Shown: positions 12,575 to 61,272, numbered from the stretch's first letter. The stretch: 64,000 bases of DNA from Gemmatimonadota bacterium (GCA_022571515.1 JACZXQ010000014.1:27913-91912); one strand, 5' to 3'. Numbers and translations: made by a program. The notes: generated by a model not told the origin, from the letters alone.

Positions 12575-12584
12575 CAGGGAACGC

Positions 12585-13445
12585 TCAGGCCCCCAACGCG
12601 AGTCCCAGCGCCAAGAGCGCGCCGTACGCGGCCACCAGGCGCGCGGTACCACCGAGAGCCGGGATCAGCTCGCTGGGATCGTCGGTCGTCATGATGCGAG
12701 ACATCGGTCCGATCGCGTACACGCCGGAAGCGAGCGCCAGGAGCGACGTGCGAGGCCATCCGGCCAAAGCCACCCCGAGCAGCGGGACCACGAAGGCGCC
12801 GGCAACGAGCGCAATGTACTGGACGCGGCTACCCGTGCGACCGATGCGGACGGCAAGCGTCCTCTTGCCCACGGCCCGGTCGCTATCGATGTCCCGGAGG
12901 TTGTTGGCCACCAGGATCGCCGTGTTGAGAGCCCCGACTCCGGCTCCGGCCAGAAGCAGATCGGCCGGGAAGTCGAGCGCTTGCACCCAATACGTTCCAC
13001 CCACGGCCACCAGCCCGAAGAACACGAACACGAAGACATCGCCAAGGCCATGATAAGCGAGGGGAAAGGGCCCACCCGTATACGCCACGGCACAGATGAG
13101 CGAGGCCAGGCCGATTACGACGATCGGCCATCCGCCGATCCAGGCCAGATAAACCCCTACGGCGAGGGCCAGCCCGAGCGTCACGAACATGCCGTTGCGC
13201 ACCGCGACGGGGGCGATGAGGCCGGCCTGGGTTACCCGCACGGGACCCACACGCTCCTCTGTGTCCCCGCCGCGCACGAAGTCGTAGTAGTCGTTCGCGA
13301 GGTTGGCGGTGATCTGGATGAGCAGGGCGCCCACCATCGCAGCCGTGGCCGGGAGGACCGTCAGCGCTCCGTGACCCGCCGCGAAGCCGGTGCCCACCAG
13401 TACGGGTGCCGCCGCCGCGCTCAGCGTCTTGGGCCGTATGGCCAA
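12585..13445 (-). CDS. menA: 1,4-dihydroxy-2-naphthoate polyprenyltransferase
   Basis: (M)AIRPKTLSAAAAPVLVGTG...NNLRDIDSDRAVGKRTLAV is UbiA-type. The likely start is TTG at 13443-13445. The upstream part of the track ORF lies antisense-shifted inside menB. Confidence 0.85.
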   Translation of the reverse strand: MAIRPKTLSAAAAPVLVGTGFAAGHGALTVLPATAAMVGALLIQITANLANDYYDFVRGGDTEERVGPVRVTQAGLIAPVAVRNGMFVTLGLALAVGVYLAWIGGWPIVVIGLASLICAVAYTGGPFPLAYHGLGDVFVFVFFGLVAVGGTYWVQALDFPADLLLAGAGVGALNTAILVANNLRDIDSDRAVGKRTLAVRIGRTGSRVQYIALVAGAFVVPLLGVALAGWPRTSLLALASGVYAIGPMSRIMTTDDPSELIPALGGTARLVAAYGALLALGLALGA

Positions 13446-13465
13446 GATCCAGACCGAGATCGGCC

Positions 13466-14302
13466 CTACGGCAGCCAGGGGTACTTCCGAAAGTCCGGTG
13501 GCCGCTTTTCGAGGAAGGCGTTCCTGCCCTCCTGGCCCTGCTCCGTCATGTAGAAGAGCAGCGTGGCGTTGCCGGCCAGCTCCTGCAAACCGGCTTGCCC
13601 GTCCAAGTCGGCGTTGAACGCCGCCTTGAGGCACCGGATGGCCAACGGGCTCTTGTCCAAGATGTCCTGAGCCCACTGCCAACCCTCGGCCTCCAACTCG
13701 GCCACCGGCACCACCTTGTTCACAAGTCCCATGTCGAGCGCTTCCCGCGCGTCGTACTGGCGACAGAGATACCAGATCTCCCGGGCCTTCTTCTGACCGA
13801 CGATCCGGGCCAGGTACGATGAGCCGAAGCCACCATCGAAGCTGCCTACCATGGGCCCGGTCTGGCCGAACACCGCGTTGTCGGCCGCGATCGTCAGGTC
13901 GCACACGACATGCAGGACGTGGCCACCCCCGATCGCGTAGCCGGCCACGAGAGCGATCACCGGCTTGGGCATGGTTCGGATGTAGCGCTGCAACTCGAGC
14001 ACGTTCAGGCGTGGCACACCATCGCTCCCAACGTACCCGGCCTCGCCTCGCACCCGTTGATCACCCCCGGAGCAAAAGGCGTACTTTCCGTCCCCGGCGG
14101 GTCCGTTTCCGGTAAAGAGCACCACGCCGATCGACGTGTCCTCGCCGGCGTCACGAAAAGCCTCGAGGAGCTCGAAAACGGTCTCGGGACGAAACGCGTT
14201 TCGGACCTCCGGCCGGTCGAATGCGATTCGGGCGACTCCGTCGCACTTATGGTAGGTGATGTCTTCAAAGTCCTTCACCACCTCCCAATCGGGCTGCGTC
14301 AT
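13466..14302 (-). CDS. menB: 1,4-dihydroxy-2-naphthoyl-CoA synthase
   Basis: [26 protein letters not shown]...[11 protein letters not shown]...[16 protein letters not shown]. Confidence 0.95.
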
Positions 14303-16089
14303 GCCAACACTCCTTTTCCTAGCTCAACCTTCACTGCGGCCGCCACGGCCGACACGACGTCCTGGCGGCGCCTGTAGCTCATCTCGCGGTCGAGCGGAAC
14401 TTCCAGAATCGCAGGGCCTTCTGTGTTCATTGCGTCCTCCAATGATTCCCCCAGGTCCTGGCTGCTCGTCACACGCCAATACGGAATCCCGTAGAGCTGC
14501 GCGACGCCACGGAAGTTGATCCCATGCGGTGTCAGGAAGTAGGACGTGAATTCCGGCTCGTGCTCGCGGATCGGTAACGCCTGAAAAATCCCACCTCCGT
14601 CATTGTGAATCACGATGAAGCTGACGTCGAGGCCGTACTTCGCCGCCGCGAGCAGCCCATTCATGTCGTGGTACATCGCGATGTCGCCCAGCACCGCGAC
14701 GGTCTTCCTGCCTGTTCCGACCTGCACCCCGAGGGCGCTGGACACAATGCCGTCGATCCCGCTCGCTCCTCGGTTTCCGTAGACGTGGACAACCTTGTCG
14801 GTCGGAGCCACGAACGCATCCAGATCCCTGACCGGCATGCTGTTGGATATGAAGAGGTTCCCATCGGTGGCAAGGCCGGCCACCGCCACCGCCACGACCA
14901 CTCCCTCGAACAAGCCTGCGGAAAGCGTCGTCTGGACCTCTGCTTGGGTGACTTCTTCTACGCGGGCCCATCCCTTTCGCCAGGAGTCCGAGGCGATCGC
15001 GTTGCTGAGACGGCCGCTCACGGCCTGGAGAAACTCGGCAGCGTCGGCCTCCACGTACTCACTGGCCACTGAAAGATGGTCCTTCCAGCGCCCCCCCGGA
15101 TCGATCACGACCTGGCGGGCCTCGGTGCTCTCTGCAAAGAGGCTGGCAAGCGACGCCGACGTCGGTGTGGCTCCTACGCGCAGAATCAGGTCCGGCCGCA
15201 TGCGCTTGCGGATGTCGGGGTCCCGCAGAAACAGGTCGTAGCCGCCGATCACGCTCTTGCAAGCACCCCCGAAACGCGCACCAGACAAAGGGTCGGCCAG
15301 GAGCGGGAACCCCGTCGCCGCGGCAAGACGCCCGGCCGCCATCCCGGTCTCATCCGGCGCCGCATTCGCGCCCACCACGATGATCCCGTTGCGCCGACTC
15401 CGACACAACTTTGCGACATGCTCCACGGCATCGCTCGGCACCGAGCGAGACCCCCGCACCACCCTCACGTAGGGATCCTCCTCCTGCCACCCACCGGGTT
15501 CACGCGTGACAGGACGCCCGCCAGGAGGATCCCCATCCGGACCGGACACGGGCTCGAGAGGCTTGGCAAACGGGAAGTTAAGATGCACGGGACCTGCCGG
15601 CGGGCCGGCCGCCACACTCACAGCGCGAGCGGCGAGCGTGCGGAGGTGCCGAAGCGCGGGCTCATCCGTGCTGGGTGGCGCCACCTCGTGGAACTCGCGC
15701 ACCTGCGTTCCGAACAGCCTGACTTGGTCGATCGCCTGGTTGGCGTCCGCGGCCCGAAGGCGATGGGGACGGTCGGCGGTCAGTACGATGAGCGGCACTT
15801 CGGCATGGAAAGCCTCGATAACCGCGGGGTGCAGGTTCGCGGCCGCCGTGCCGGACGTGGTGATAACCGCTGCGGGCATGCCCGTGGCACGTCCAATGCC
15901 CAGCGCGAAGAAACCTGCGGACCGCTCGTCGAGGTGCACGAAACGCTCGAAGCGGTCGTCTCTGGCCACGGCCATGACAAGGGGCGTCGAGCGAGATCCG
16001 GGTGCGATACAGACGTGGCGGACCCCGCAGGCCGCCAACTCCTGAACGAAGGCACGGGCCCAGGGAGTGTTCGCTCCACCAGGGTTCAC
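14299..16089 (-). CDS. menD: SEPHCHC synthase (ThDP-dependent)
   Basis: [31 protein letters not shown]...[10 protein letters not shown]...[12 protein letters not shown]. The GTG start overlaps the menF TGA (GTGA), and the stop overlaps the menB ATG. Confidence 0.9.
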
Positions 16090-17471
16090 AGGCGGGCCCC
16101 GCTGGCCTCGAGGGCACGCAGCACGGGCTCGAACTTGATGCCGGTCTCCTCCCACTCGAGTGCCGCGTCAGAGCCGGCGACGATCCCCGCTCCCGCGAAC
16201 AGCCGCCACTGCCTGCCGCGCACGACCGCACACCGTAGAGCCGGCGCAAACACGCCGTTGCCCGCGGCATCGAACCAACCGACCGGGCCGGCATACCAGC
16301 CGCGCTCGAACGGCTCCTGTCGGCTCAGAAACTCCAACGCCGCATCACGGGGTAACCCACACACCGCCGGCGTCGGGTGGAGCGCCTCTAGAATGTCGAG
16401 CACCCCGATCCCTTCGGGGATCCGGGCTTTGATTTCCGATTCGAGATGTTGGATCCTCGAGAGCGTCAGCACGTGAGGCTCGGCCTGAGCCTCGACGTCT
16501 TCAGCAAGGGGCGTCAGGCGGGCCACCATGTCATCCAGGGCAATCCCATGCTCCTCCCGATCCTTACGGCTGGACAGCAGGCGTTCGGCCAGGGCTCCCC
16601 GCTCTTCGGGGGTCGTTCCCACACCGATGGATCCGGCCACCGCAGTGGCTTGGAACGCACCATGCTGCAACGTCGCGACCGTCTCTGGGGCCGCCCCGAG
16701 GAGTGCGGCGCCCGGCCGAGGCTCGAACAGGAATACGTGCGTCCCGCGGTTTCGGTCCCAGAGGTGCTCGAGTACCTCGACAGGTCGCAGGAGTCCATCG
16801 GTTTTGAGATCGAGCGTACGCGCGAGCACTACCTTCGATACGGACGCCTCGCTGATGGCGGCGAGACTCGCCGAAATAGCCGCCTCCCATGCGGACCGGC
16901 CCGAGTCATTGCTATCGACGTCGATGGCGTGCTCGCCTGTGTGTTCTTGGCCTGCTTCGTGGGCAAGAGTCCGCCCGAACCGTTCGAGTCGCTCGCGAAG
17001 GTCTCTTGCGAGCTGGGACGGATCTTCGCCCACTCTGGCCAACGCATGGGCTCTCAGGGTGACCGGGCCTTCCCCGCCCGAAGCCTCTATGGACGGAAGG
17101 TGGAACAGCGCCGTCGGGAAGCCATCCCAGACACCGGCCTGTCGATGATCTGAGCGAAACGCGAAGCCTCCATAGAGCCGCGGTCCGCTCTCCCCGGGAG
17201 AGCCGAGTCCGAGCAACTCGCTGGCATCCGAGCGAACGGCTTGAAATCGGCCGTCCACGCCGGAAGTGGAGGCTGTAGCCACCACCTCGGCCGCAATTCC
17301 GGAGTGAGCGACCCAGTGTTCACCGCGCGCCCAGAACCCGCGCGCCTCCCCCTCCGCCGCCCTGAGGAAGGCCGAGGGTGACACGTCCGGCCCGGGCGCC
17401 GACACGGAGACCACGCGGCTCAGCGCCGCGGAAACCCCTACCCGCTCCATTGCGGGCTCGATTACAGACAA
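16086..17471 (-). CDS. menF: isochorismate synthase
   Basis: Chorismate-binding family: GAAPETVATL...SRKDREEHGIALDDM...LHPTPAVCGLP...RGWYAGPVGWFD...FAGAGIVAGSD. Confidence 0.85.
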   Translation of the reverse strand: MSVIEPAMERVGVSAALSRVVSVSAPGPDVSPSAFLRAAEGEARGFWARGEHWVAHSGIAAEVVATASTSGVDGRFQAVRSDASELLGLGSPGESGPRLYGGFAFRSDHRQAGVWDGFPTALFHLPSIEASGGEGPVTLRAHALARVGEDPSQLARDLRERLERFGRTLAHEAGQEHTGEHAIDVDSNDSGRSAWEAAISASLAAISEASVSKVVLARTLDLKTDGLLRPVEVLEHLWDRNRGTHVFLFEPRPGAALLGAAPETVATLQHGAFQATAVAGSIGVGTTPEERGALAERLLSSRKDREEHGIALDDMVARLTPLAEDVEAQAEPHVLTLSRIQHLESEIKARIPEGIGVLDILEALHPTPAVCGLPRDAALEFLSRQEPFERGWYAGPVGWFDAAGNGVFAPALRCAVVRGRQWRLFAGAGIVAGSDAALEWEETGIKFEPVLRALEASGARL

Positions 17472-17675
17472 CTGCTCGTCACGTCGAACGGGGACGCTCC
17501 CAGAGGTTAGTGCCGGGTGTGTCCGATCTCACGATCGGGACGGGAGACTATGAACGAAGAGAATATAGGGTGCTGCGGTGAACAACCAAGCCGTGAACGG
17601 CCTGACCGCTAGCTGTGGATGAGGTACGTGAGGAGCCACGCGACCGCCTGGGGTAGCATGTCGAAGGTGAAGAGC

Positions 17676-42449: not shown

Positions 42450-42740
42450 GTGGCACGGGCCCTATACAATTCGCTCTTCGAGGCCCTCAAAGGGCAGGGC
42501 TTCGTGAACGCATATGCCGGAATCACGCTCCCCAACGAGGGAAGCGTGGGCCTGCACGAGGCTCTGGGCTTCGAACATTTGGGCGTTTACCGCAACGTAG
42601 GCCACAAAGACGGACGTTGGCACGACGTGGGGTGGTGGCAACTCGCCATCCAGGATCCGCTCGAGCATCCTGAACCCCCGACGCCGTTCAGGCTGTTTCG
42701 CGAGAGGGAGGAGTGCGGCGTCCCGACTCAGAACGAGTAG
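42450..42740 (+). pseudogene. C-terminal fragment of a GNAT (phosphinothricin-acetyltransferase-like) gene
   Basis: (G)VARALYNSLFEALKGQGFVNAYAGITLPNEGSVGLHEALGFEHLGVYRNVGHKDGRWHDVGWWQL corresponds to only the last two-thirds of a GNAT fold. There is no matching N-terminal part upstream. Confidence 0.5.
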
Positions 42741-44179
42741 TCCAACCTGACCCAGAGAGCGTGCGGACGCCGGAACGACGCCTGGTTCGTGCGCGTGTCC
42801 TTCAGAAACAGCTCAGCCTCGATCACGGCCCGGATGTTCTGCCGGACGAGAAACACCACACCGGGCATGATCCGGGTCTTCTCAGACCGGCCCGCATCGA
42901 AGGCCGGGCCCACGGCCTCGCTCGGAAGCGTTACCTGGAAGCGGTCGAGCTTGACCGATCCGATCAGCCACGGCAGACCCATGTACTCGAGCTTTCCGAA
43001 CCAGGACGAGATCTCGAGGGCACCGGGGATCTGGAGGCCCCACGGAGAATCGTGATGGCTGCGGACGTAGCCGACGCCCACATCGAGGGGCCCCTGTAAC
43101 GCTCTCACACTGACGCCGAAGGAACGGTGATCGTCATCGACACCCCCCCCTACGGGTTGGCCCCCGAAGTAGCCGAAATGTTCGATGATCAAAGAGCGGT
43201 CGAGGAGTTGCCCGCCAGCGCCCGGCACGGGCCCTCCCCCAGGATCGTACTTACCCCGGAGATTCAGGCCTCCGAACTTGTACCGGACCTTGTAGTACAC
43301 GTCTTTTCGGGTGTTGTCGTCGTCGGATTGAGCCGCCGTGCCCTGGGCGACTCCGAACCCATAATAGAGCCGGTCCGTGATGAGGCCGTTGATCTCGATG
43401 GCGGGCTGGGGCGTCGCCAGCTGAAAATCGCCCTCGGACCGGAGTTCGGCGCCGCCCTCCGACGCAAACGCCTCCACATCGGAGGACCGGAAGCCCTGCC
43501 ACGCGAATTTCTGTCGCGCTGCCCGATCAATCTGTCGATCAGCGAACGTAAACAGATAGAGATTCTGCTGTCCCACCCAGAGGTTCAGAAGACCCGAGGG
43601 AAGTGCAGTTATCGGGTTCTGGAAGGCGATCTTCGCCTGCAGCACCTCGAAGCCGTTCTCGCGAGTCCACTCCGACTCGAAGAACGCGCCGATTCCGGCC
43701 CCGAGCGGGGCGCCGGCCAGGAGGTAGATCTCGTGCGGAAAGCGGAACGTCGTGGCCGTCTCGCCTTCCTCGTCGCGTGTCACCCCAAAATCCGACTGAA
43801 CCCTCAACGCGAAGGGCGCCAGCCCGGGGAGTTCGCTCGGCCATATCGCCCGCGGCCACAGGTCTTTCCAAGGCTCGCTGCCGAGCGGAATAGGATCATC
43901 ACGACGCTCGAGCAACTCGCTATCGGGAAGGCGATATCCGTTCAGGCGGAACGCCTCGCCGAGAACGTTGAGTTTTGGGGCGGCATTATGGCATGTGGAG
44001 CAGGCTGTACCGTAAAGGCGGGCGAACGCCGGGATCGGTGCCGCTGCACTGCGGTGAACATCAACCACCTCCGCTGGCGGCCCGAAACCGGACGTAGCGC
44101 CGACCACCAGAACGCAACCCACTGCGATCGCTGGCCAAGTCAGCCCTCGTAGCGCCCCCTTACGACCCCGTTTCGTCAT
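42728..44179 (-). CDS. fused monoheme c-type cytochrome / outer-membrane beta-barrel protein (Cyc2-like architecture)
   Basis: Signal/TM segment, a single CxxCH (YGTACSTCHNAAPKLNVLGEAFRLNGYR) around residue 60, then about 400 aa of alternating beta-strand-like sequence ending VRLDYSF. Confidence 0.6.
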   Translation of the reverse strand: MTKRGRKGALRGLTWPAIAVGCVLVVGATSGFGPPAEVVDVHRSAAAPIPAFARLYGTACSTCHNAAPKLNVLGEAFRLNGYRLPDSELLERRDDPIPLGSEPWKDLWPRAIWPSELPGLAPFALRVQSDFGVTRDEEGETATTFRFPHEIYLLAGAPLGAGIGAFFESEWTRENGFEVLQAKIAFQNPITALPSGLLNLWVGQQNLYLFTFADRQIDRAARQKFAWQGFRSSDVEAFASEGGAELRSEGDFQLATPQPAIEINGLITDRLYYGFGVAQGTAAQSDDDNTRKDVYYKVRYKFGGLNLRGKYDPGGGPVPGAGGQLLDRSLIIEHFGYFGGQPVGGGVDDDHRSFGVSVRALQGPLDVGVGYVRSHHDSPWGLQIPGALEISSWFGKLEYMGLPWLIGSVKLDRFQVTLPSEAVGPAFDAGRSEKTRIMPGVVFLVRQNIRAVIEAELFLKDTRTNQASFRRPHALWVRLDYSF

Positions 44180-44802
44180 CGGCCGTCCTCACCATCGTCG
44201 AGTGTGACCCGAATGGTCCATCGCGAAATGCCTCCCGCGGGCACGTCCAACGTTCCGGCGTCACGCGTCCACCGCCGGTGCCAGATCCGCACCTCATAGG
44301 CTCCGGGTGGAACCGACTCCACTACGAAACCGCCATCACGGCGGGTGACGCCCGCGAAGGAGGTAGGAGAGACCACGACCCACGCGACCATCTCGGGGTG
44401 GACGTGGCACAGGATGACGTAGCTCCCCTCTTGGTCGAAGGTCCTGAACCGGCTCTGGCCCATCGGATACGTGCCGAGATCGAAAGCCGAGTCCGTCCGC
44501 CCGGGGCTGAACACGTTGTGCATGATCGGATCGCTGTTCAGGAACTCGACAGTCGATCCCACTTGAACGGGAACCACACGCGGGTTGAACCTCAGATGCG
44601 ACTGGTCGATGAGGGCCGTGTCCGCCCTGGGGTCTTCCCGCCGCCCAATCGGAATCAGTTGGACAACCGCAGAGGCCACCGTCTCGCGCCCGAGCAGAAG
44701 CGTGCCGCTCACCGTACCCTGCGCCCCGGCTTGATACGGTACGCTCAAGGCGACGGCGAGTACGCCGAGGGCTCTAGTTCTCATCATGGGCCGAACCGTC
44801 AT
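44176..44802 (-). CDS. periplasmic cupredoxin (type-1 Cu, amicyanin-like loop) with C-terminal carboxypeptidase-regulatory-like domain
   Basis: Signal peptide. Ligand set H (IMHNVFS) and C-x2-H-x2-M (ILCHVHPEM). C-terminal GGFVVESVPPGAYEVRIWH. The stop overlaps the ATG of the cytochrome-barrel gene (ATGA). Confidence 0.65.
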   Translation of the reverse strand: MTVRPMMRTRALGVLAVALSVPYQAGAQGTVSGTLLLGRETVASAVVQLIPIGRREDPRADTALIDQSHLRFNPRVVPVQVGSTVEFLNSDPIMHNVFSPGRTDSAFDLGTYPMGQSRFRTFDQEGSYVILCHVHPEMVAWVVVSPTSFAGVTRRDGGFVVESVPPGAYEVRIWHRRWTRDAGTLDVPAGGISRWTIRVTLDDGEDGR

Positions 44803-44862
44803 CGTCCTCCTTCACGTTCTTGATGTCGGCGAGCCAGCGATGCAAGGTGCGGCGGCTCACCT

Positions 44863-46077
44863 TGGCTGACGTGCCCCCTCCTGCGGTACCACTTGCTATG
44901 TTAGACCTGCAGCCATTTGCTCCCCCCCCAAACCTGATCCATCCTCAGGGTGAAAAACCGAGTCGATTGGAGCCTGGTATGAAGTGGCCACCGCCGCCGA
45001 AGTGGGTGGGGACCTGGTCGGCCAAACTGCTGTGGGGCCTCACGTTGTTGTACTCGTCCTTCCAGCGATGGAGTGTCGCAGGGCGTCCCTCAGATCGATA
45101 AACCAATGCTGTGATAGGCACTCTCGTCTGAGGCCGCCGTTGAACGCCTCAATGAACGGATTATCCTTCGGTTTGCCCGGCCTGCTGAAGCCGAGTTTGA
45201 CACGGTTCCAGTAAGCCCAGTGGTCCAGCCCCCCCGAGGTGAACTCCGTTCCATTGTCCACGGAGATCACCTTCGGCAAGCTCCCGCGCTTCTCTCCTAC
45301 CGCACTCAGAATGCAGCCCACGTCCTCGCCCCGAAAGCCCACTCCGGCCATAAGCGCGACGCACTCACGGCTGAACACATCAAGAATGGTCAGTACCCGC
45401 ACCGTTCGGCCGTTCGACAACGTGTCGTGCACGATGCCAATCGCCCAGCGCTCGTTGACGGCCGTGGCCGGAGCACCACGCTCTCGTCTCACGGCACTCC
45501 GACGTCGCTTGGGCTTTTTGCGCTTCAGCGTCAGGCCTTCTTCCCGGTACATGCGCTCGATGAGCTTCCGGTTCACCGGCGAGCCCGCAGCGGCTCTCTG
45601 GCCGGCCGCACGCTCCGGTAACGCACGGTCGATCGGGAGACGCCCATGGCCCTACATGCCCGACGCTCAGGTAGCCGGTAGGCCTCCCGTGGCCACGCGA
45701 CCCCTGATTTCCACTGCGTCAAGCTCACCATTTTTTTCTGAGCGCCTCCTGAAGGATCGTCTTGTCTAGCGACAGATTCGCCACCAGCGTCTTCAGCCGA
45801 CGGTTTTCTCCTCCCGGATCACCTTCAGCTCCCGGAGCTCCGAGGCCCCCAGGCCGCCGTATTTCCTCTTCCACCGATAGTACGTCTGCTCGCTGATCTT
45901 GATCCCGAGCTTGTGGATGATCTCCGCCCCTTGCGTTCCGACCTCGCCCTGGCGCAGTGCCATCGCGATCTGTTCCACACTGAATCTCGACTTCCTCATC
46001 GGGCTCCTCTACCCGCCCCTGGCGGGTCGTTTGGGGCCCTCAACCTAGCTTGTCTTTACGGTAGTCGCCCTGGACCA
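44863..46077 (-). mobile_element. degenerate IS3-family insertion sequence (ends approximate)
   Basis: OrfA MRKSRFSVEQIAMALRQGEVGTQGAEIIHKLGIKISEQTYYRWKRKYGGLG (45793..45999), with a frameshift in an A-run near 45815. A7 slippery motif at 45731-45737. OrfB has a DDE core (45040..45576: WAIGIVHD...ISVDNGTEFTS...GKPKDNPFIEAFNG), lacks its N-terminal part, and carries a further frameshift before WKDEYNNVRPHSSL. TG...CA ends are only tentatively placed. Confidence 0.75.
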
Positions 46078-46089
46078 GGAAACGGGGGT

Positions 46090-46269
46090 TGGCACCGCTA
46101 CCGCTGCAAGGCGTGTCACATGGAGCTTTTCGAGCCGTGAGCCCGCACCAACTCCATAACGATGCAGGACATCTCGGCCGGCCGCGCGTGCGGCCGCTGC
46201 CACAACACACGAGTCGCGCTCGCAGCCGGATTCGGCGAGTGCGAGCGCTGCCACATCTCGGAAAACTGA
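46090..46269 (+). pseudogene. 3' remnant of a multiheme (c3/c7-like) cytochrome gene
   Basis: ...RYRCKACHMELFEP-TGA-ARTNSITMQDISAGRACGRCHNTRVALAAGFGECERCHISEN* has three CxxCH motifs in one frame, interrupted by an in-frame TGA at 46138-46140. The 5' part is absent, at the IS3 boundary. Confidence 0.5.
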
Positions 46270-46304: not shown

Positions 46305-47009
46305 ATGCTGTGCCACACCGACAGCAAGCAGGGACACTGGCTCCGAGCGACACTCGTGGCCACGCTGCTGCTGGTTGGGGGCCCTCCCTGTGGGTGTGCC
46401 CAGGCCCGCCTGCGGCGCAGCAGGGCCGGCTCGGAGTCGGGATTTGACTTCGCCGGCTCGGAGTCGGGATTTGACTTCGCCGGCTCGTGGAGCCAGACCG
46501 GAAACAACCCCACCTCCTCGGAGCGGGCCTACCGTCAGTGGCTGACGGCGCCGCTGCGCTGCGCCATCATCAACCCTCTCCTGTTCTCGTACAAGCTGTC
46601 GGTGAGTCGTCGCCTCGCGCGCGCGGGCGGAACCGAGTTGCCTGATACCCTTAAGCACAGGACGTTCGGATGGACGGCGGGTGCCCAGATTCTACAAGCC
46701 CTTCCCGTCTCGATGAGCCTGAGCACTAGCCGCACGCGGGGCACGACCGGAGGTGGGTTCACTTCTCAAGGGGGGTTCTCAGCCTCGAATTTCAGCAGCT
46801 CTCTGAAGTACACGAACCGATATCTTCCGGCTTCCCTCACCCACTCCACCAAGGGTGGCAACTCGGACAGGTCGCTGGAAGCGGATATGAGCGCTGACAT
46901 GTCCGTCGGCGCTGTAACGCTTTCGGTGCGCTGCTTCTACAACGTCCGCTTCGAGCCGTCCTCGGCCACGCGGAGCCGTGTCACCGTCCGTGTGGTGCGC
47001 CGGTTCTGA
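46305..47009 (+). CDS. hypothetical secreted/OM-like protein with 9-aa tandem repeat
   Basis: Hydrophobic N-terminus (ATLVATLLLVGGPPCGCAQA), GSESGFDFA repeated twice, an S/T/G-rich beta-like sequence, and a C-terminal F. Weak call. Confidence 0.35.
   Translation: MLCHTDSKQGHWLRATLVATLLLVGGPPCGCAQARLRRSRAGSESGFDFAGSESGFDFAGSWSQTGNNPTSSERAYRQWLTAPLRCAIINPLLFSYKLSVSRRLARAGGTELPDTLKHRTFGWTAGAQILQALPVSMSLSTSRTRGTTGGGFTSQGGFSASNFSSSLKYTNRYLPASLTHSTKGGNSDRSLEADMSADMSVGAVTLSVRCFYNVRFEPSSATRSRVTVRVVRRF
46426..46487 (+). repeat. perfect 27-nt tandem duplication plus 8-nt partial third unit
   Basis: ccggctcggagtcgggatttgacttcg occurs at 46426-46452 and again at 46453-46479, followed by ccggctcg. Confidence 0.9.
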
Positions 47010-49569: not shown

Positions 49570-52164
49570 TTACTGCAGGTACGGCGCCAGGTCGAGCACG
49601 GTCACGTCGTCCCTACCTCGCAGGCGGTCGAGGAACCAGTACTTGTGGCCACCACCGAACGTGATCAGAATCCGCCTCCCCCGGTGATCCTCTATCGCGC
49701 GGTCGATGAGGCGATAGTGCGCCTCGTTGATGTTCGTCCAACCTCCCGGACCGATCAGGTCGTTCTGGAACTCGTCGTAGAGGTCGAGTTCGGCGCGCTG
49801 GCGTTGGTCGTAGGCATCGGAGTGGATGAATCGTGGGTCGTCTCCGGCCGCCGGCGCGTCCCCGATACGCCTCCTCACCTCGGCTCGACGGCTGGCGTAC
49901 TCCTCGCGTCGGGTGGCCCATTCATCCGTGGTGTTGAATTCCAGGATGCGCGCTCCCCGCAGGTCTGACATCTCCTGGGTCCATCCGGCGCAGGGCACGA
50001 TCTCGAAGCCCATCTCCACGGCCAGGTCCAGAATCGCGTCGGTGTATTCCGGGAACACACGAACCCTCGAGTCCTCGATCACGCCCCGTTCGGTGAAGTC
50101 ACTCCAGATGCGCTCCCAACGATCAGGGGCGATCTCGGTACACAACACGTCCGGCTCGAATCGCCTGATCGCGTCCTTGACCTGCTCCAGGCCCCACGTG
50201 TCGCTCTCGCGGTGCCGTCCGTGGATCATTCCCATGACCGCCACTTCCGTGACCGTCGAGATTCCGGCGGACGAGGGCTGGGGCTGCCGTAACCAGCGAT
50301 CCGGAATCCGGATGATGGACAGCTCATGGTTGCCTTCGGACGATACGAACAGTGTCTCGCCCGAGGGGTGTGCCCCCATGACGATGGGCTGCTCCCCAAT
50401 CGGGATACGCGCAATCACCCGCTTCTCGGGGAGGGCGATCACCGAGATGTCGTGGCTCGCAGTGTTGTTCACGAAGGCCAGGCGCCCGTTGGTCGACAGT
50501 ACGACGGAAAAAGGCGAAGCCCCGATTCCCTCGCTGAGGGAGCCCACCACCCGACGCGAAGCCGTGTTGATGAACGCGATGCGATCCTCGCCGCGCACGG
50601 CGACCGCGTACTCGATGTCTCCCGGTAGGACCACACCACCGCTGGGGTTTGCCCCGACCTCGACGGTGTCTAGAACGCGGTCGTTCCAGAGATCGATGAC
50701 TGTGACCGTTCCGTCGTCGTACCCTGGCACGAAGGCAAGCCGCCCGTCCGACGTAGCGGCCGGCGGAAAGGGTCGGTCACCGACCGAGTAGACCCGCTCG
50801 GCGCTCTCGGCGCCGGGATCCATGATGAGCAGCGCGTCGGTCTGCTCCACCGAGATGAGCCAGCGTCCGTCCGGGAGCGGTCCGCTGATGAGTGAGGCTC
50901 CGACGCCGGTGCTGTACCCGTCGAGGTAGGCCCCATCACCGAGTGCATAACGCGCGACCTCGTTTTTCTGGAAGCGGGTGACGGCCATCTCCTGGCCGCC
51001 GGGTAGCAGCACGACGCCCAACGGCGTGCCTTCCACCGCGATCGCCCGCACGAGCCGGCTCGTAGCCACGTCCACGATCGCCACATGGTCGGAACCGGCG
51101 ACCGCCACATAGGCCGTCCCGCCATCCGCGGAGAAGGCGATCTGATGGGGATTCAGGCCGACGTCGAGTCGCGCCACCACGTCGAACCCGTTGGTCTCAC
51201 CAGGTCCGGCCGGCCGGTTCGACAGCTCGCGCGCCACAGCCTCGGCGTTACCATCGAAGGTCGCTCCGTATTGGGGGAACTGAGCGAAGTCATCGAAGTC
51301 CTCGAAGTCGACCCGGCTCACGACCTCTTCCGGCGTTACGCCTGACGCCAAGGCCCTTCCGACCCGCTCCACCTGAGCCGCCATATAATCTCGGAAACGC
51401 ACTAGGTCCGCTCGGGTGCTGGGCCCAAAGTGCCCGGCCACCACGTGGTCCGGGGCTAGATCGATGAAGCCGTTCAGAACGTCGACCCAGACGATGGCGC
51501 TGCCCTCGCCCATGGAAGGACTGGCTTGGTGCATGAACACGTCCCCCGTGACGAGGAAACGCTCATCGGCCGACCAAACCACCAGATCACCCGCCGTGTG
51601 GGCGGCACCAGGGTGGAAGATCTCGACCGTGTGGCCCCCAAGATCGACCACTCGGCGCTCGGCCACGGTCTGATCGGGCAACTCGATGAGGCAGGCGGCG
51701 AAGTCGGCGGCCTCGGCCGGATCCGGAGCTGCCCCGGCCAGACGCTTCGCCTGCAGCGCTCCCTGCTCGGCCAGACGCCGTCGCGTCATCGGGTGAGCGA
51801 GCACCTCGAAGGAGCGATCGCCCAAGCACACTACGCCAAGCGCATGGTCCGGATGCCAGTGCGTGATCACGACGTGCGTGACAGGCTTCCCAGCCGCCTC
51901 TTCCGCCGCGCGGAGGAAGTCGCGCGCGATAGACGGCGTCAGTCCGGGGTCCACCACCAGCGCGCCCTCTTCGCCGACGAACAGCGCTCCGTTGGAGGTC
52001 CGCTCATCTTCGGCGAACCACGTCCACGTGCGCGCCGAGACTTGAACCAGGCGGCCCGCCGGGCTGGACTGGCCGAGGAGCGCCGCCGGGTCGGCGAGGA
52101 GCGTTACGGTTGCGATGAGAAGCAGCGCGACGCCACTCGCCCAGGATCGAAGGATCGGTACCAT
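49570..52164 (-). CDS. secreted three-module protein: MBL-fold hydrolase + YVTN-type beta-propeller + C-terminal TraB/GumN/ChaN-like domain
   Basis: Signal peptide. THVVITHWHPDH (HxHxDH). Repeated ...P.G.A.S.DG...YV.N..S..VSVID-like blades (NPHQIAFSADGGTAYVAV..DHVAIVD; SPFSVVLSTNGRLAFVNNTASHDISVI). The final ~230 aa (VAVMGMIHG...FEPDVLCTEI...FGGGHKYW) are assigned with less certainty. Confidence 0.6.
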   Translation of the reverse strand: MVPILRSWASGVALLLIATVTLLADPAALLGQSSPAGRLVQVSARTWTWFAEDERTSNGALFVGEEGALVVDPGLTPSIARDFLRAAEEAAGKPVTHVVITHWHPDHALGVVCLGDRSFEVLAHPMTRRRLAEQGALQAKRLAGAAPDPAEAADFAACLIELPDQTVAERRVVDLGGHTVEIFHPGAAHTAGDLVVWSADERFLVTGDVFMHQASPSMGEGSAIVWVDVLNGFIDLAPDHVVAGHFGPSTRADLVRFRDYMAAQVERVGRALASGVTPEEVVSRVDFEDFDDFAQFPQYGATFDGNAEAVARELSNRPAGPGETNGFDVVARLDVGLNPHQIAFSADGGTAYVAVAGSDHVAIVDVATSRLVRAIAVEGTPLGVVLLPGGQEMAVTRFQKNEVARYALGDGAYLDGYSTGVGASLISGPLPDGRWLISVEQTDALLIMDPGAESAERVYSVGDRPFPPAATSDGRLAFVPGYDDGTVTVIDLWNDRVLDTVEVGANPSGGVVLPGDIEYAVAVRGEDRIAFINTASRRVVGSLSEGIGASPFSVVLSTNGRLAFVNNTASHDISVIALPEKRVIARIPIGEQPIVMGAHPSGETLFVSSEGNHELSIIRIPDRWLRQPQPSSAGISTVTEVAVMGMIHGRHRESDTWGLEQVKDAIRRFEPDVLCTEIAPDRWERIWSDFTERGVIEDSRVRVFPEYTDAILDLAVEMGFEIVPCAGWTQEMSDLRGARILEFNTTDEWATRREEYASRRAEVRRRIGDAPAAGDDPRFIHSDAYDQRQRAELDLYDEFQNDLIGPGGWTNINEAHYRLIDRAIEDHRGRRILITFGGGHKYWFLDRLRGRDDVTVLDLAPYLQ

Positions 52165-56809: not shown

Positions 56810-56878
56810 CGGGCGGTGCGCCCATCACACTCGGATATCCCCCCAGACCCGCGTAACCCTCAACGTACGGAGCAAACC

Positions 56879-59869
56879 ATGAGAAGACATTTGTTTTCAC
56901 TTTGCTTACTGCTTCTGGCAGGGGTGGCTCTCCCGGCGGACGCGCAGCAGCGCGAGATCCGTGGGCGAGTCGTCTCCTCCCCAGAGCAGTTCGAGTTGCC
57001 CGGCGCCGTGGTAAGCGTCGTGGGCACGCAGATCGGAGCGATCTCCGGTCAAAACGGCGCGTTCCTGCTCTCCGCCCCAGCCGGTGAGGTGCGGATCCGC
57101 GTCACGATGCTGGGCTACAAGACCGGCGAGATGGTGGTGAGCGCGCAGCAAAGCAACGTCACGATCTCCCTCGAAATCGACGTGCTGAACATCGAGGGTG
57201 TCGTCGTGACGGGCCGTGCCACAGCGGTGGCACGCCGAAACCTCTCGATCGCCATCGCCACGATCCCGGTCGGAGAGATGGCCCGCGTGCCGGCGGAGTC
57301 GTTCGAGAAGGCGATTCAGGGCAAGGTCCCGGGCGCTGTTATCGAGACCAACTCGGGCGCCCCGGGAGGCGGTATTCAGGTGCGGCTTCGCGGTACATCT
57401 ACGATCAACGGAGGCTCACAGCCGCTCTACGTCGTGGACGGCATTATCACATCGAACGTCGCGATTCCGTCGAATCAGAACGCGATCAGCCTGGCCAGCG
57501 GTGGGTCCAACCCCTCGCTGACCCAGGACGCGCTGGTGAACCGCATCACCGACCTCAACCCCAACGACATCGAGAAGATCGAGATCCTCAAGGGCGCCGC
57601 GGCGTCCGCGATCTATGGGTCCAAGGCGGCCAACGGCGTGATCATCATCACGACCAAACAGGGCCGCCCGGGCAAGACTCGGTTCGAACTGACCCAACGC
57701 TTCGGCTTCTTCGACATCTCGAACAAGCTGGGCAGCCGCACGTTCGAGACCGTGGACGAGGCCGTGGGCGCCTTCGGGGAAAGTGCCCGAGCCGTGTTCA
57801 CACCGGGGGTGGCGTTCGACCACGAGGAGTTGCTCGGCGGACGTAACGACCTGTCGACCGAGACGATCTTCAGCCTCAGCGGCGGGACCGACCGCACTCG
57901 CTTCTTCGTGTCGGGCCTGTGGAAGAACGACGAGGGGATCATCGACAACACGGGCTTCGAGAAGCAGTCCGTGCGGGTAAATCTGCAGCAGCGGGTCGGC
58001 GATCGGGCCACGCTCACGTTCAACACGAATATTCTGCACACTCTTGCGCAGCGCGGCATCACGAACAACGACAACAGCGGCACCAGCTACTACATGGTGT
58101 TCCCGTTCACGCCCAACTTCGTGAACCTCAGCCGGCAAGCCGACGGCACGTTCCCGGTGAATCCGTTCGAACGCAGCAACCCACTCCAGACGGCCGCTCT
58201 CCTCAAGAACGACGAGGACGTGTGGCGGATGATCGGGTCGGCTGACCTCAACGTCGACGTGCTGAAAAGCACCACCCAGTCGCTCCAGTTCCGCTTTACG
58301 GCGGGTCTCGATTACTTCACTCAGGAGAACGAGATCTTCTCGCCACCCAACCTTCAGTTCGAGCCGAACGACGGGCTCGCGGGCACATCGCTGCTCAGTC
58401 GCAGCGACAACCTAAACCTCAACATCAACGGGAATCTGGTCCATAGCTACACACCCTCTTCGGGTTCCTACACGGCGATCACGTCGGCGGGTATCCAGTA
58501 CTCGGACCAGGACCTCAACGTCTCGCGTATCACCAGCCAGAACCTCATCGCCGGGCAGCCCAACGTGGATGCCGGGACGGTAGTGGGCGTCACAGAGTTC
58601 CGCCAACGTGTGAAGGACTTCGGTGCCTATCTCCAGGAAGAGCTGTTGCTTTTCGATGAGCGGCTCATGCTCTCTGGAGGAATCCGCGCCGACCGGAACA
58701 GCACGAGTGGTGAGCACGACAAGTTCTTCTATTATCCGAAGGCTTCGGCGTCCCTCCGCTTCCCGGACCTCGCGTCTGGAATCGACGAGCTGAAACTCCG
58801 CGTTGCGTGGGGCCAGGCGGGCAACCGGCCCCTCTTCGGCCAAAAGTTCACCGCCCTCACCGGGACAAACAACATCCAGGGAATCCCGACCATCATCGTG
58901 CAGGGTGCCGCAGGTGATGCTGCCCTGAAGCCGGAACGCCAGTCCGAGATCGAGGCCGGTATCGATGTCTCCTTCTTCGATGGTAACGCGAGTCTGGAGC
59001 TAACCGGCTTCCAGAAGAACATCACTGACCTGCTGCTCCGGCGGACGCTGGCGCCCTCCTCGGGCTTCGCCACGCAGATCTTCAACGGTGGCGAGCTCCG
59101 CGTCAGGGGTCTCGAGGTCGCGGTAGCGGCGACACCGATCACCACACGACGATTTTCCTGGGTTTCGAGAGCTACGCTGTACTTCGATCGCAGCGAAATC
59201 CTAGAGCTTCCGGTCCCGGCGTTCAACGCGGGTGGTGGATTCGGAACCTCGCTTGGGGACTTCAAGATCGAGGTCGGCTCGTCTGCCACGCAGATCGTGA
59301 CGAACCTCGGTTTGAACTCCGACGGGACCCAGATCGTCGGCAAGGTCGGCAACGCCAACCCGGACTTCAAGGTCTCCTGGGGTAACGACATCGAGTTCGG
59401 CAACTTCAGCATGTACGGGCTGTGGGACTGGCAACAGGGCGGTACCATAGTCAACCTGACCAAGCTGCTGTTCGACTTCGGCCAGAACTACGTCGATCAC
59501 GAAGATGTCGTCGACCCGGTCGACTTGGGTGACGGAACCATGATCGGCGGCACGAAGGGAGAGCAACGGCTCGGTCTCTGGTTGAACGGTGACAGCCGAG
59601 GCTACATGAACTCTGCCACTTTCCTCAAGCTCCGCGAGGTGTCCGTGTCGTACGAATTCCCGGCGGACGTGGTTTCGAATCTCTTCGGCTCTGCCGTTAC
59701 CGGCCTCACTGCGACGCTGAGCGGGCGGAACCTGCTCACGTTCTCGGAATACGACGGGCTCGATCCCGAGGTGAGCAACTTCGGCAACCAGGCGATCTCG
59801 CGTAACGTGGACGTTGCGCCATTCCCGCCGAGCCGGAGCTTCTGGTTCTCGCTCAACGTGAGCTTCTGA
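56879..59869 (+). CDS. SusC/RagA-family TonB-dependent outer-membrane receptor
   Basis: Signal peptide, carboxypeptidase-regulatory-like domain (IRGRVVSS...GAVVSVVGT...), plug (IEKIEILKGAAASAIYGSKAANGVIIITTK), a long barrel, and C-terminal FWFSLNVSF. Confidence 0.9.
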   Translation: MRRHLFSLCLLLLAGVALPADAQQREIRGRVVSSPEQFELPGAVVSVVGTQIGAISGQNGAFLLSAPAGEVRIRVTMLGYKTGEMVVSAQQSNVTISLEIDVLNIEGVVVTGRATAVARRNLSIAIATIPVGEMARVPAESFEKAIQGKVPGAVIETNSGAPGGGIQVRLRGTSTINGGSQPLYVVDGIITSNVAIPSNQNAISLASGGSNPSLTQDALVNRITDLNPNDIEKIEILKGAAASAIYGSKAANGVIIITTKQGRPGKTRFELTQRFGFFDISNKLGSRTFETVDEAVGAFGESARAVFTPGVAFDHEELLGGRNDLSTETIFSLSGGTDRTRFFVSGLWKNDEGIIDNTGFEKQSVRVNLQQRVGDRATLTFNTNILHTLAQRGITNNDNSGTSYYMVFPFTPNFVNLSRQADGTFPVNPFERSNPLQTAALLKNDEDVWRMIGSADLNVDVLKSTTQSLQFRFTAGLDYFTQENEIFSPPNLQFEPNDGLAGTSLLSRSDNLNLNINGNLVHSYTPSSGSYTAITSAGIQYSDQDLNVSRITSQNLIAGQPNVDAGTVVGVTEFRQRVKDFGAYLQEELLLFDERLMLSGGIRADRNSTSGEHDKFFYYPKASASLRFPDLASGIDELKLRVAWGQAGNRPLFGQKFTALTGTNNIQGIPTIIVQGAAGDAALKPERQSEIEAGIDVSFFDGNASLELTGFQKNITDLLLRRTLAPSSGFATQIFNGGELRVRGLEVAVAATPITTRRFSWVSRATLYFDRSEILELPVPAFNAGGGFGTSLGDFKIEVGSSATQIVTNLGLNSDGTQIVGKVGNANPDFKVSWGNDIEFGNFSMYGLWDWQQGGTIVNLTKLLFDFGQNYVDHEDVVDPVDLGDGTMIGGTKGEQRLGLWLNGDSRGYMNSATFLKLREVSVSYEFPADVVSNLFGSAVTGLTATLSGRNLLTFSEYDGLDPEVSNFGNQAISRNVDVAPFPPSRSFWFSLNVSF

Positions 59870-59925
59870 TCATGACTGCTATGCGAATGAATCGCCTTTC
59901 GAGTCTCAGCGAAGGATATACCAAA

Positions 59926-61272
59926 ATGCGTACACTACCTTTGCTGTCGGTGCTGGTCGGAGCTCTCATGCTGGCTGGATGCAGCGACGATCTCCTGATC
60001 CCCGACTTCAACAATCCGAGTCTGGAAGAGCTCCAGAACAACCCGACACGTGTGCTGGTGAACACCGCGGCCCAAGGCCTGCTGGTGGGAACCCGCGCGC
60101 AGATGGGCACCCGCAACGGATACGTCTCGTTGCTGGGCATTCTTGGCCGCGAATCGTACAACTTCGACGGCTCGGATCCCAGGTTCATCACCGAGATGCT
60201 GGATGGTGCGTTGGACCCGGGCAGCCCGGCGTTCGGCGCCAACCTGTGGACGCTCCGGTACAGAAACATCCGAAATGCCAATATCCTGCTCACCGCTCTC
60301 GTGGAGGTGCAGGGATTCTCCGGCGCGGAGCTCGAAGCGATTCGTGGCTTCGCCAAGACCATTCAGGCGTACGACCTCCTGATGGTCATCAACACCCGGG
60401 ACACGAACGGCGCGGTGATCGACACCGACCGCCCGCTCGATGCCGACCCCGCCCCGATCGTTGGGAGGGATCAGGTGCTTAGCGCCGTTGCTGGGTTGCT
60501 CGACGAAGCTCGCGGGCACCTCCAGGCCGGTGGAGGGAGCTTTCCGTTCATGCTATCCTCCGGCTTCGACGGTTTCGACACTCCCACGACGTTCGTGATG
60601 TTCAACCGTGCCCTCAAGGCACGCGTTGACGTCTACATGGGCAACTTCAGCGCCGCTTTGACGTCGCTGGACACCTCATTCCTCGACAAGGGTGCCGACC
60701 TGTCCTTGGGCGTCTATCACAACTTTGGAGCGGCTTCGGGGGATACCCGAAACAACCTGTTCGATCCTACGCAGACCCCGGACATACTGGCGCACCCGTC
60801 GGCCGCAGCCGCGGCTGAACTCAAGGGGAACGGTGATATCGACGACCGGATCGCCGCGAAGATCCGCACCATACCGGGCCAAACTCAGTTGGGCGTGACG
60901 TCCAGCGAGGCGTTCAGCATCTACCAGAGCACGAGTGCCTCTGTACCGTTCATTAGGAACGAGGAGCTCATCCTACTTCGGGCCGAAGCGAACGCCGGGC
61001 TCGGAAACGTTGCCGACGCCGCGGACGATATCAACTTCATTCGTACGACTTCGGGCGGATTGGCTGCCCGGACCGACATCACGGCGGCCAACGTTCTCGA
61101 CGAGGTCCTCAGGCAGAAGTGGTTCTCGCTCTTGTTCGAGGGCGGGCATCGGTGGATCGACCTGAGGCGGTATGGCAAGCTCGGCGAGCTTCCTCTCGCG
61201 GTTCCGTCGCATCAGGTAAACGCAATGTTCCCCATTCCGGAGGCTGAGACGCTGGCCCGACAGGGCGGCTGA
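59926..61272 (+). CDS. SusD/RagB-family outer-membrane lipoprotein
   Basis: Lipobox LMLAGCS, TPR-like helical sequence, and C-terminal KWFSLLFEGGHRWIDLRRYG typical of SusD-like proteins. Confidence 0.85.
   Translation: MRTLPLLSVLVGALMLAGCSDDLLIPDFNNPSLEELQNNPTRVLVNTAAQGLLVGTRAQMGTRNGYVSLLGILGRESYNFDGSDPRFITEMLDGALDPGSPAFGANLWTLRYRNIRNANILLTALVEVQGFSGAELEAIRGFAKTIQAYDLLMVINTRDTNGAVIDTDRPLDADPAPIVGRDQVLSAVAGLLDEARGHLQAGGGSFPFMLSSGFDGFDTPTTFVMFNRALKARVDVYMGNFSAALTSLDTSFLDKGADLSLGVYHNFGAASGDTRNNLFDPTQTPDILAHPSAAAAAELKGNGDIDDRIAAKIRTIPGQTQLGVTSSEAFSIYQSTSASVPFIRNEELILLRAEANAGLGNVADAADDINFIRTTSGGLAARTDITAANVLDEVLRQKWFSLLFEGGHRWIDLRRYGKLGELPLAVPSHQVNAMFPIPEAETLARQGG

Follow-up and report, generated by a model that had tools for sequence, protein, structure and literature searches.

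A 64,000-nucleotide (nt) stretch of DNA from a Gemmatimonadota bacterium (GCA_022571515.1, JACZXQ010000014.1:27913-91912), which we call the window, carries on its minus strand two overlapping genes whose products may together move electrons across the outer membrane. Sequence comparison and structure prediction support assignment of one product, 483 amino acids (aa) long, to the Cyc2 family of fused cytochrome-porins, and identify the other, of 208 aa, as a predicted type-1 copper protein whose cupredoxin appears to be nested in a CarboxypepD_reg-like (immunoglobulin [Ig]-like) beta-sandwich. We consider that the pair probably forms an outer-membrane-to-periplasm electron conduit that, by analogy with characterized Cyc2 proteins, would oxidize dissolved Fe(II). 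The window holds an intact but orphaned copy of this pair, which is located as follows.

44176-44802, minus strand: copper-protein gene, 208 aa (open reading frame [ORF]; Copper-bind match; AlphaFold2 [AF2] mean predicted local distance difference test score [pLDDT] 88; homologs 36 to 94% identical)
42728-44179, minus strand: Cyc2-family fused monoheme cytochrome-porin gene, 483 aa (ORF, homologs, AF2 and Foldseek, hhalign)

An earlier note, made from the sequence alone, had described a start/stop overlap between the two genes, and this is seen as a 4-base ATGA in which the ATG of the porin gene lies over the stop codon of the copper gene. The sequence GAAGGAGGA is present at 44805-44813, immediately 5' of the first ATG of the copper gene. 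Homologs of the 483-aa protein reach 100% identity (best E = 0, with many at E < 1e-148), and a family profile built from 32 of them (alignment A1), compared with the representatives of 50%-identity clusters, recovers 2,444 at E <= 1e-3, of which 696 reach E <= 1e-10; the closest named homologs are all Gemmatimonadota metagenome-assembled genomes (MAGs). The profile matches, the E = 0 homologs and the invariant CxxCH and copper ligands described below establish that both ORFs are true genes and did not arise by chance.

Keffer et al. (2021; PMC8406198) define the Cyc2 family by a signal peptide, one CxxCH with AxPxFAR[Q/K][T/Y] before and PxL after the heme site, a length of >= 365 aa and a 16-strand porin nearest OprO and OprP; the published signature reads PxFAR[Q/K][T/Y]-x3-CxxCH-x3-PxL. 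The corresponding parts of the 483-aa protein, and a segment particular to its clade, are these.

44087-44179, minus strand: leader, residues 1 to ~31, a basic n-region followed by a hydrophobic helix (inspection; AF2 helix at residues 6-30)
43976-44032, minus strand: Cyc2 signature, P50-A-F-A-R-L-Y, x3, C60-S-T-C-H64, x3, P68-K-L (conservation; motif per PMC8406198)
43826-43933, minus strand: clade-specific conserved segment, residues 83-118, ...PLGSEPWKDLWPRAIWPSELPG, running from the heme motif to strand 1 (A1 conservation)
42731-43822, minus strand: predicted 16-strand beta-barrel that spans residues 120-483 and has V-R-L-D-Y-S-F, which resembles a beta-signal, at its end (AF2; Foldseek)

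The leader, the single CxxCH within YGTACSTCH and the terminal phenylalanine that had been claimed for this ORF were all located (C60-H64, 43988-44002; end ...LDYSF). On inspection the leader has a basic n-region and the hydrophobic stretch WPAIAVGCVLVVGATSG; for both proteins of the pair, leader or signal peptides were assigned by inspecting the sequence together with the AF2 model. The heme region reads P-I-P-A-F-A-R-L-Y-G-T-A-C-S-T-C-H-N-A-A-P-K-L. Its CxxCH, the only one in the protein, is invariant both in A1 and in A3, an alignment of 52 diverse sequences that are 24-72% identical overall, and a single CxxCH is likewise found in 135 of 135 full-length heme-bearing representatives. P50, F52, R54, C60, C63 and H64 are invariant across A3. 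PxL stands at the 4th residue past CxxCH (H64-N-A-A-P-K-L) in all 117 close homologs that are full-length and heme-bearing, and the spacing of the motif is the same as in AVPSFARQTGQPCATCHTAFPEL of a Methylocystis protein and the equivalent 'FARQT' of Ralstonia. The window protein departs from the published signature at one position, having L55 for Q/K. Of the 117 close homologs, 75 have K or Q at position 55 and 16 have L, while M and R occur in 12 each. The strict PxFAR[Q/K][T/Y] is present in just 59 of the 117, because some others read FSR for FAR, and in 94 of the 135 representatives; the remainder are off at one position.

A barrel prediction had been set beforehand as a test of the Cyc2 assignment, and the AF2 model places 16 strands over residues 120-483, with pLDDT mostly 77-95 per 10-residue block. 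When this barrel was compared with the PDB by Foldseek, OprP (2o4v) and OprO (4rjx, 4rjw) were the top matches at E ~1e-12, followed by general 16-strand porins; OprP and OprO are also the structures nearest Cyc2 according to Keffer et al. (PMC8406198). No Cyc2 structure was among the best 50 Foldseek matches. At the sequence level, Pfam returned only a sub-threshold Porin_4 match for the 483-aa protein, NCBIfam returned none, and a PDB sequence search gave no useful match. A tblastn search of plasmids led to the Methylocystis protein, which has full-length homologs on Ralstonia megaplasmids and in Caballeronia, Paraburkholderia, Ideonella and Acidiphilium; Burkholderia and Ralstonia are named as heavily sampled genera in the Cyc2 data set of Keffer et al. 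(PMC8406198). Alignment of A3 by hhalign to A6, a profile of proteobacterial Cyc2-type proteins (Methylocystis, Ralstonia, Caballeronia, Ideonella, Acidiphilium), extends end to end over 385 columns (99.3%, E 3.3e-20). The ~35-residue segment at 83-118 (...WPRAIWPGELPG) appears in this comparison as an unaligned gap; within A1 its residues W104, W108, P109, R110, I112, W113 and P114 are invariant.

With the signature present bar one substitution, a predicted 16-strand barrel and end-to-end similarity to proteobacterial Cyc2-type proteins, the Cyc2-like architecture proposed in the earlier note is largely supported. An MtrB/PioB-type porin with a separate cytochrome was considered and ruled out, as a single polypeptide holds both the heme motif and the barrel, which has 16 strands. 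As such, the 483-aa protein is one more member of a family known in this phylum: earlier surveys that relied on FeGenie or comparable tools list Cyc2 homologs from Gemmatimonadota, Calditrichota, KSB1, Bacteroidota, Acidobacteriota and Planctomycetota (PMC9769843) and from marine Gemmatimonadota MAGs (PMC11316326). About 75% of the homologs in PMC9769843, mostly from heterotrophic phyla, sit in cluster III, mainly in a subclade with Leptospirillum and Tenderia.

The copper protein is divided as follows.

44722-44802, minus strand: signal peptide, residues 1-27, with ...YQAGA/QG cleavage (inspection; residues 1-28 have low pLDDT and no secondary structure)
44644-44721, minus strand: CarboxypepD_reg sandwich, N-terminal two strands, residues 28-53 (PF13620 match after joining)
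44368-44622, minus strand: cupredoxin domain, residues ~61-145, with a short C-x2-H-x2-M loop (PF00127; ligand conservation)
44203-44367, minus strand: CarboxypepD_reg sandwich, C-terminal part, residues 146-200 (PF13620)

The Pfam match to Copper-bind (PF00127) scores 29.4 bits against a cutoff of 21.2. In an alignment of 38 sequences, the ligands H95, C132, H135 and M138 are invariant, and the loop reads CHVHPEM (C132-x2-H135-x2-M138), so that the short amicyanin-type loop described in the earlier note is borne out and the copper site is complete. Of the findings that the note had named as refuting its proposal (no barrel, no similarity to Cyc2 or other porin-cytochromes, an incomplete copper site), none was obtained. 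The AF2 model is best matched in Foldseek by the NirK C-terminal cupredoxin, amicyanin and plastocyanin, and a sequence search of the PDB likewise puts plastocyanin, amicyanin and the cupredoxin at the C terminus of some NirK-type enzymes nearest to it. The amicyanin equivalog TIGR02657 of NCBIfam is not reached (24.2 bits against a cutoff of 110.2). A parallel with rusticyanin had also been drawn; it holds in that a copper protein is encoded with a Cyc2-type porin, but homology does not extend beyond the shared fold, as no rusticyanin model or PDB chain was among the NCBIfam, PDB sequence or Foldseek matches.

The carboxypeptidase-regulatory-like domain that had been placed at the C terminus appears to be present, although it is not simply C-terminal, being split into residues 28-53 and 146-200 around the cupredoxin. 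The native protein matches PF13620 over residues 145-199 with 22.1 bits, covering profile positions 22-81. When residues 28-53 were joined in silico to residues 145-208, the score rose to 30.5 bits over profile positions 2-81 of 82 (cutoff for both, 32.3), and the excised middle, the cupredoxin, scores 32.9 bits on PF00127. Since joining the flanks extends the match to nearly the full profile, the cupredoxin appears to be inserted after the second strand of the sandwich. Most homologs of the copper protein have precomputed PF13620 matches. The sandwich is seen in its more usual setting, the N terminus of an outer-membrane barrel, elsewhere in the window (56816-61272, plus strand), where a SusD-family protein comes after a SusC-like TonB-dependent receptor that begins with a CarboxypepD_reg domain.

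The distribution of the pair was examined by scanning one genome from each of 185,579 species with a pattern taken from A1. The scan gave 554 relatives, of which the best 80 loci were kept (48 from Gemmatimonadota, 32 from other phyla) and their neighbor genes located by tblastn; because the scan pattern was built from A1, these 80 loci are skewed toward the clade of the window. With adjacency taken as a copper-protein gene on the same strand and <=700 nt from the Cyc2-like gene, 74 of the 80 loci show adjacency, a conservation wider than the earlier note, which had proposed this check, could know. Adjacency is found in 45 of 48 Gemmatimonadota loci, the copper gene lying upstream in all 45, and in 29 of 32 loci from other phyla, where it lies downstream in 28 and upstream in 1. 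The six non-adjacent loci comprise three with the copper gene elsewhere in the locus and three in which no copy was found, two of the latter having the Cyc2-like match at a contig edge. Labels of the loci from other phyla are Deltaproteobacteria/Desulfobacterota, Ignavibacteria, Bacteroidota, KSB1, Calditrichaceae, Acidobacteriota, Myxococcales and TA06.

Regulatory genes accompany the pair. A sigma-54 response regulator is present in 44 of 48 Gemmatimonadota loci and in 8 of 32 from other phyla, and a PAS-type histidine kinase in 34 of 48 and 17 of 32, respectively. Among loci with called genes, the stop codon of the regulator overlaps the start of the copper gene in L001, L003, L005 and L095. 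Further genes come after the pair in some 11 to 15 of the 48 Gemmatimonadota loci, encoding another plastocyanin-like cupredoxin, an NHL propeller, c7-type multiheme cytochromes and a ~630-aa protein. The partner set of a 72%-identical relative, L007, differs from this multiheme/NHL cluster: there, the pair has the kinase and regulator on its downstream side, after which come a multi-cupredoxin protein of 616 aa at 15683-17533 (with matches to Cu-oxidase_2 and Copper-bind and SoxE/sulfocyanin-like matches) and a diheme cytochrome c. Sigma-54-type sites (TGGCAC-N5-TTGC-like) occur just 5' of Cyc2-like or cupredoxin genes at L066 2030, L078 7477, L084 7462 and L045 9639. The sigma-54 -24/-12 pattern was found upstream of the pair in a few non-Gemmatimonadota loci only, with none in the window or in the 14 other Gemmatimonadota loci scanned.

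In the open-access papers searched, we met no account of this linkage of a Cyc2-like gene with the genes for the cupredoxin and the sigma-54 regulator. The combination of nested cupredoxin, Cyc2-like porin, PAS kinase and sigma-54 regulator looks like an undescribed variant present in many phyla. A bolder proposal, which we put forward tentatively and with more doubt than confidence, is that the porin and nested cupredoxin are obligate subunits of an undescribed 'porin-cytochrome-cupredoxin' complex under dedicated PAS kinase/sigma-54 control, found across Gemmatimonadota, Bacteroidota/Ignavibacteria, Calditrichota, KSB1, Acidobacteriota, Desulfobacterota and Myxococcota. If so, the neutrophilic Cyc2-type conduits of these lineages, most of which are heterotrophic, would pass electrons in the periplasm first to a copper protein instead of a cytochrome, and the four genes together would mark inducible extracellular redox metabolism more sharply than cyc2 does by itself.

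How the proposed conduit might work can be outlined as follows. The 483-aa porin would form a 16-strand outer-membrane barrel with one covalent heme c on its N-terminal extension, while the 208-aa protein would be exported to the periplasm and hold one type-1 copper center. A dissolved extracellular reductant, most likely Fe(II), would be oxidized at the heme in or at the pore, and the electron would then pass from the heme to the copper center, to soluble carriers and to a terminal reductase. The sandwich domain and the clade-specific WPRAIWPGELPG segment are candidate docking surfaces. In relatives, the pair adjoins, or is probably co-transcribed with, the PAS histidine kinase and sigma-54 response regulator. 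The analysis shows the gene structure, family membership, fold, conservation of the metal ligands, synteny and loss of the regulator, and from these we infer that heme and copper are loaded, that the two proteins interact physically, what the substrate is and which way electrons flow; it is membership in the Cyc2 family that, by analogy, points to iron. Copper sites of the amicyanin and plastocyanin type typically have potentials of about +250 to +370 mV. Since the Cyc2 of strain PV-1, at the +208 mV given in PMC8406198, lies below this range, heme-to-copper (inward) transfer would be downhill.

Several points weigh against such a conduit. The strict published motif is missed at L55, the heme domain (residues 29-118) has pLDDT < 50 in the AF2 model, and neither A1 nor A3 contains an invariant Met or second His as a candidate sixth heme ligand. 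Membership in the family is based on published motifs, fold and homology to proteobacterial relatives, and Keffer et al. warn that function is uncertain for homologs distant from characterized proteins (PMC8406198). Many carriers of the pair are described as heterotrophs (PMC9769843). In the genome studied here the regulators are gone, and no sigma-70-like or sigma-54-like promoter was found upstream of the pair. Finally, the pair of Gemmatimonadales stands beside c7-type multiheme cytochromes and an NHL protein, homologs of DFE_0461-0465 occur in marine Gemmatimonadota MAGs in which oxidation and reduction are not distinguishable (PMC11316326), and dfe genes are counted among iron-reduction markers in a mine-tailings paper. 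Several of the loci retrieved here have MAG names styled like the bins of PMC11316326, which suggests the same data set.

These last points bear on the alternative that electrons flow the opposite way or come from another substrate, that is, that the pair exports electrons to Fe(III), Mn(IV) or humics, or takes them up from other donors, as part of a larger multiheme extracellular electron-transfer system. In its favor, 11 to 15 Gemmatimonadota loci have a multiheme/NHL/second-cupredoxin cluster after the pair that resembles, in composition, the Uet cluster of Ca. Tenderia electrophaga; a fragment of one such cytochrome survives in the window, and oxidation and reduction are not distinguishable in the MAGs with DFE_0461-0465 homologs (PMC11316326). 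Against it, the multiheme cluster is missing from most loci that have the pair, Fe(III) oxides are a poor target for a monoheme porin whose copper partner has a high potential, and all biochemically tested Cyc2 proteins are Fe(II) oxidases (PMC8406198). We regard this alternative as unlikely and retain Fe(II) oxidation as the probable role.

What became of the pair in this genome is recorded in the DNA around it.

44774-44869, minus strand: sigma-54 response regulator remnant, the 3' end, ~31 codons plus stop, ...SAKVSRRTLHRWLADIKNVKEDDDGSAHDEN and then the stop (aligns with the C termini of relatives' regulators)
44880-46060, minus strand: decayed IS3-family element, approximate bounds (Pfam; six-frame translation)
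44880-46060, minus strand: parts of that element, namely HTH_Tnp_1 orfA at 45793-45999, an rve fragment at 45040-45576 and, in another frame, a transposase C terminus ending at 44945 (Pfam, six-frame translation)
46096-46266, plus strand: pseudogene remnant of a c7-type multiheme cytochrome, consisting of its final 57 codons, which include three CxxCH and are interrupted by an in-frame stop (homology to the L003 cytochrome)
46371-46721, plus strand: truncated homolog of the ~630-aa protein encoded next after that cytochrome in the clusters of Gemmatimonadales (tblastn, weak)
43143-43150, minus strand: G8 homopolymer in the barrel coding region, codons ~344-346 (sequence)

The regulator remnant overlaps the start of the copper gene and resembles the Fis-type helix-turn-helix (HTH) C termini of the regulators of relatives. 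DNA homology to the nearest full locus, L095, ends at ~44875. In L095, whose Cyc2-like protein is 78% identical, the regulator is intact, and L097, whose copper protein is 94% identical, retains at least the last 65 regulator codons, reaching the contig edge; the loss of the regulator is therefore recent. The IS3 element has stop codons between orfA and the rve fragment, and its bounds are approximate because no terminal inverted repeats of >= 14 nt were found. Beyond it, the earlier note had seen a multiheme cytochrome remnant; this exists, but on the plus strand, opposite to the gene pair. It is 61% identical to the C terminus of a 284-aa cytochrome (L003 13030-13884, E 1e-19) and is followed, in the expected order, by the ~630-aa homolog fragment, for which the tblastn match is weak (24% identity over 117 aa, E 6e-6). 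Within that fragment, a 27-nt unit is perfectly duplicated in tandem at 46425-46487 (2.3 copies with 100% match) and encodes a repeated SESGFDFAG. On the other side of the pair, the C-terminal third of a GNAT acetyltransferase (42450-42740, plus strand; Acetyltransf_4 profile 94-155 of 155) converges on the Cyc2-like gene with a 13-nt overlap of its stop, a further sign of decay around the pair. A scan of large ORFs in the window revealed neither a kinase nor a sigma-54 regulator nor any further respiratory partner, and no intrinsic terminator was found around the pair.

The loss of the regulator and the destruction of the multiheme cluster, with both genes of the pair intact, mark the pair as an orphaned copy. 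A deletion beside the decayed IS3 took out the kinase and left just the final ~31 codons of the regulator, and the nearby multiheme-cytochrome cluster has likewise been destroyed. It could be argued from the same facts that the pair is a silent relic, decaying after rearrangements around IS3 stranded it without regulators and electron-transfer neighbors: only a stub of the regulator remains beside IS3, an in-frame stop interrupts what is left of the cytochrome, the ~630-aa homolog and the GNAT gene are both incomplete and no promoter-like site was found upstream. In addition, the Cyc2-like ORF is broken near G8 in two related assemblies, L097 (a 348-aa product ending in ...QPVAGGGR and a stop) and a 100.9-kb contig that carries a 117-aa C-terminal piece. 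These breaks could reflect homopolymer sequencing error or slipped-strand on/off variation. Against a relic, both ORFs are full-length and keep all family-invariant residues, and the ratio of nonsynonymous to synonymous substitution rates (dN/dS) relative to the nearest relative, L097, is 0.27 for the copper protein and 0.22 for the Cyc2-like protein; relative to L095 and L007 it is 0.12-0.20. The identical 483-aa protein is also found on contigs from several samples. At the four places shown both genes are intact, and the three with upstream sequence share the IS3 context. We accordingly think it rather improbable that the pair is silent. That the pair is instead a sensor or protective device, oxidizing Fe(II) or Cu(I) for detoxification or reporting redox state to the adjacent two-component system, would suit its tight linkage to the PAS kinase and sigma-54 regulator across phyla and its mostly heterotrophic carriers, but is very improbable, as the same linkage is equally expected of an inducible respiratory module and the window copy persists without regulators.

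The pair matters for the use of cyc2, which is the main genomic marker for inferring iron oxidation in metagenomes and whose meaning outside classical iron oxidizers is openly doubted (PMC8406198). The copper partner and the sigma-54 two-component linkage supply a testable electron acceptor, a regulatory handle through which the inducing signal might be sought, and a multi-gene signature that could part real conduits from stray homologs. The window is also a caution for surveys of gene presence, as it would be scored 'Cyc2-positive' though its regulators and electron-transfer neighbors have been deleted. Two further regions of the window deserve mention. A run of ORFs at 11153-17471 (minus strand) has Pfam matches fitting menaquinone biosynthesis (chorismate-binding enzyme, thiamine pyrophosphate [TPP] enzyme, UbiA prenyltransferase, AMP-binding enzyme), and 49570-52164 (minus strand) encodes an 864-aa protein with a metallo-beta-lactamase domain, a weak Cytochrom_D1-family match (residues 457-509) and a long C-terminal region without a family match.

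Among known systems, the closest to the window protein are Cyc2 of M. ferrooxydans PV-1 and A. ferrooxidans and Cyt572 of Leptospirillum, which share with it a leader, a single N-terminal CxxCH and the PxFAR..Y/PxL motif with the same spacing. Like Cyc2, it is about 450-480 aa long, with a predicted 16-strand OprP/OprO-like barrel, and its profile homology to proteobacterial members is full-length; unlike the Cyc2 motif, it has L for Q/K at one position. The window clade also differs from the proteobacterial Cyc2 type in the ~35-residue WPRAIWPGELPG segment between the heme motif and the barrel, and in its genomic partner, a cupredoxin, whereas the next gene after the Cyc2-type genes of Caballeronia, Ideonella, Methylocystis and Acidiphilium encodes a c-type cytochrome.

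The rus operon of A. ferrooxidans offers a likeness of another kind, as rusticyanin is a periplasmic type-1 copper protein encoded with Cyc2 and its proposed acceptor. The window copper protein differs in its short amicyanin-type loop, in being nested in the CarboxypepD_reg sandwich and in its NCBIfam matches, which are weak and limited to amicyanin, pseudoazurin and plastocyanin. Moreover, rus is located at the far end of its operon, whereas the window copper gene is immediately adjacent to the porin gene and translationally coupled to it. Amicyanin, plastocyanin, pseudoazurin and some NirK C-terminal cupredoxins have the same fold and the same His-Cys-His-Met site with C-x2-H-x2-M, and give the best sequence and structure matches. 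In contrast to these, the window cupredoxin falls far under the equivalog cutoffs and is inserted in another domain, and it is paired in the genome with an outer-membrane cytochrome-porin instead of with methylamine dehydrogenase, a photosystem or nitrite reductase.

Two larger systems can be compared with the pair as well. The Uet cluster of Ca. Tenderia electrophaga and clusters of the DFE_0461-0465 type, compared by composition, are alike in gene set in some Gemmatimonadales, sharing c7-type multiheme cytochromes, a cupredoxin and NHL-repeat proteins. Such genes are absent from most loci with the pair and present only as fragments in the window, and so do not define the two-gene module. MtrCAB and MtoAB resemble the proposed conduit in transferring electrons across the outer membrane via a barrel (comparison from PMC8406198); unlike it, they use separate barrel and decaheme subunits and a wider barrel, whereas the window protein would carry out the crossing with one heme fused to a 16-strand porin.

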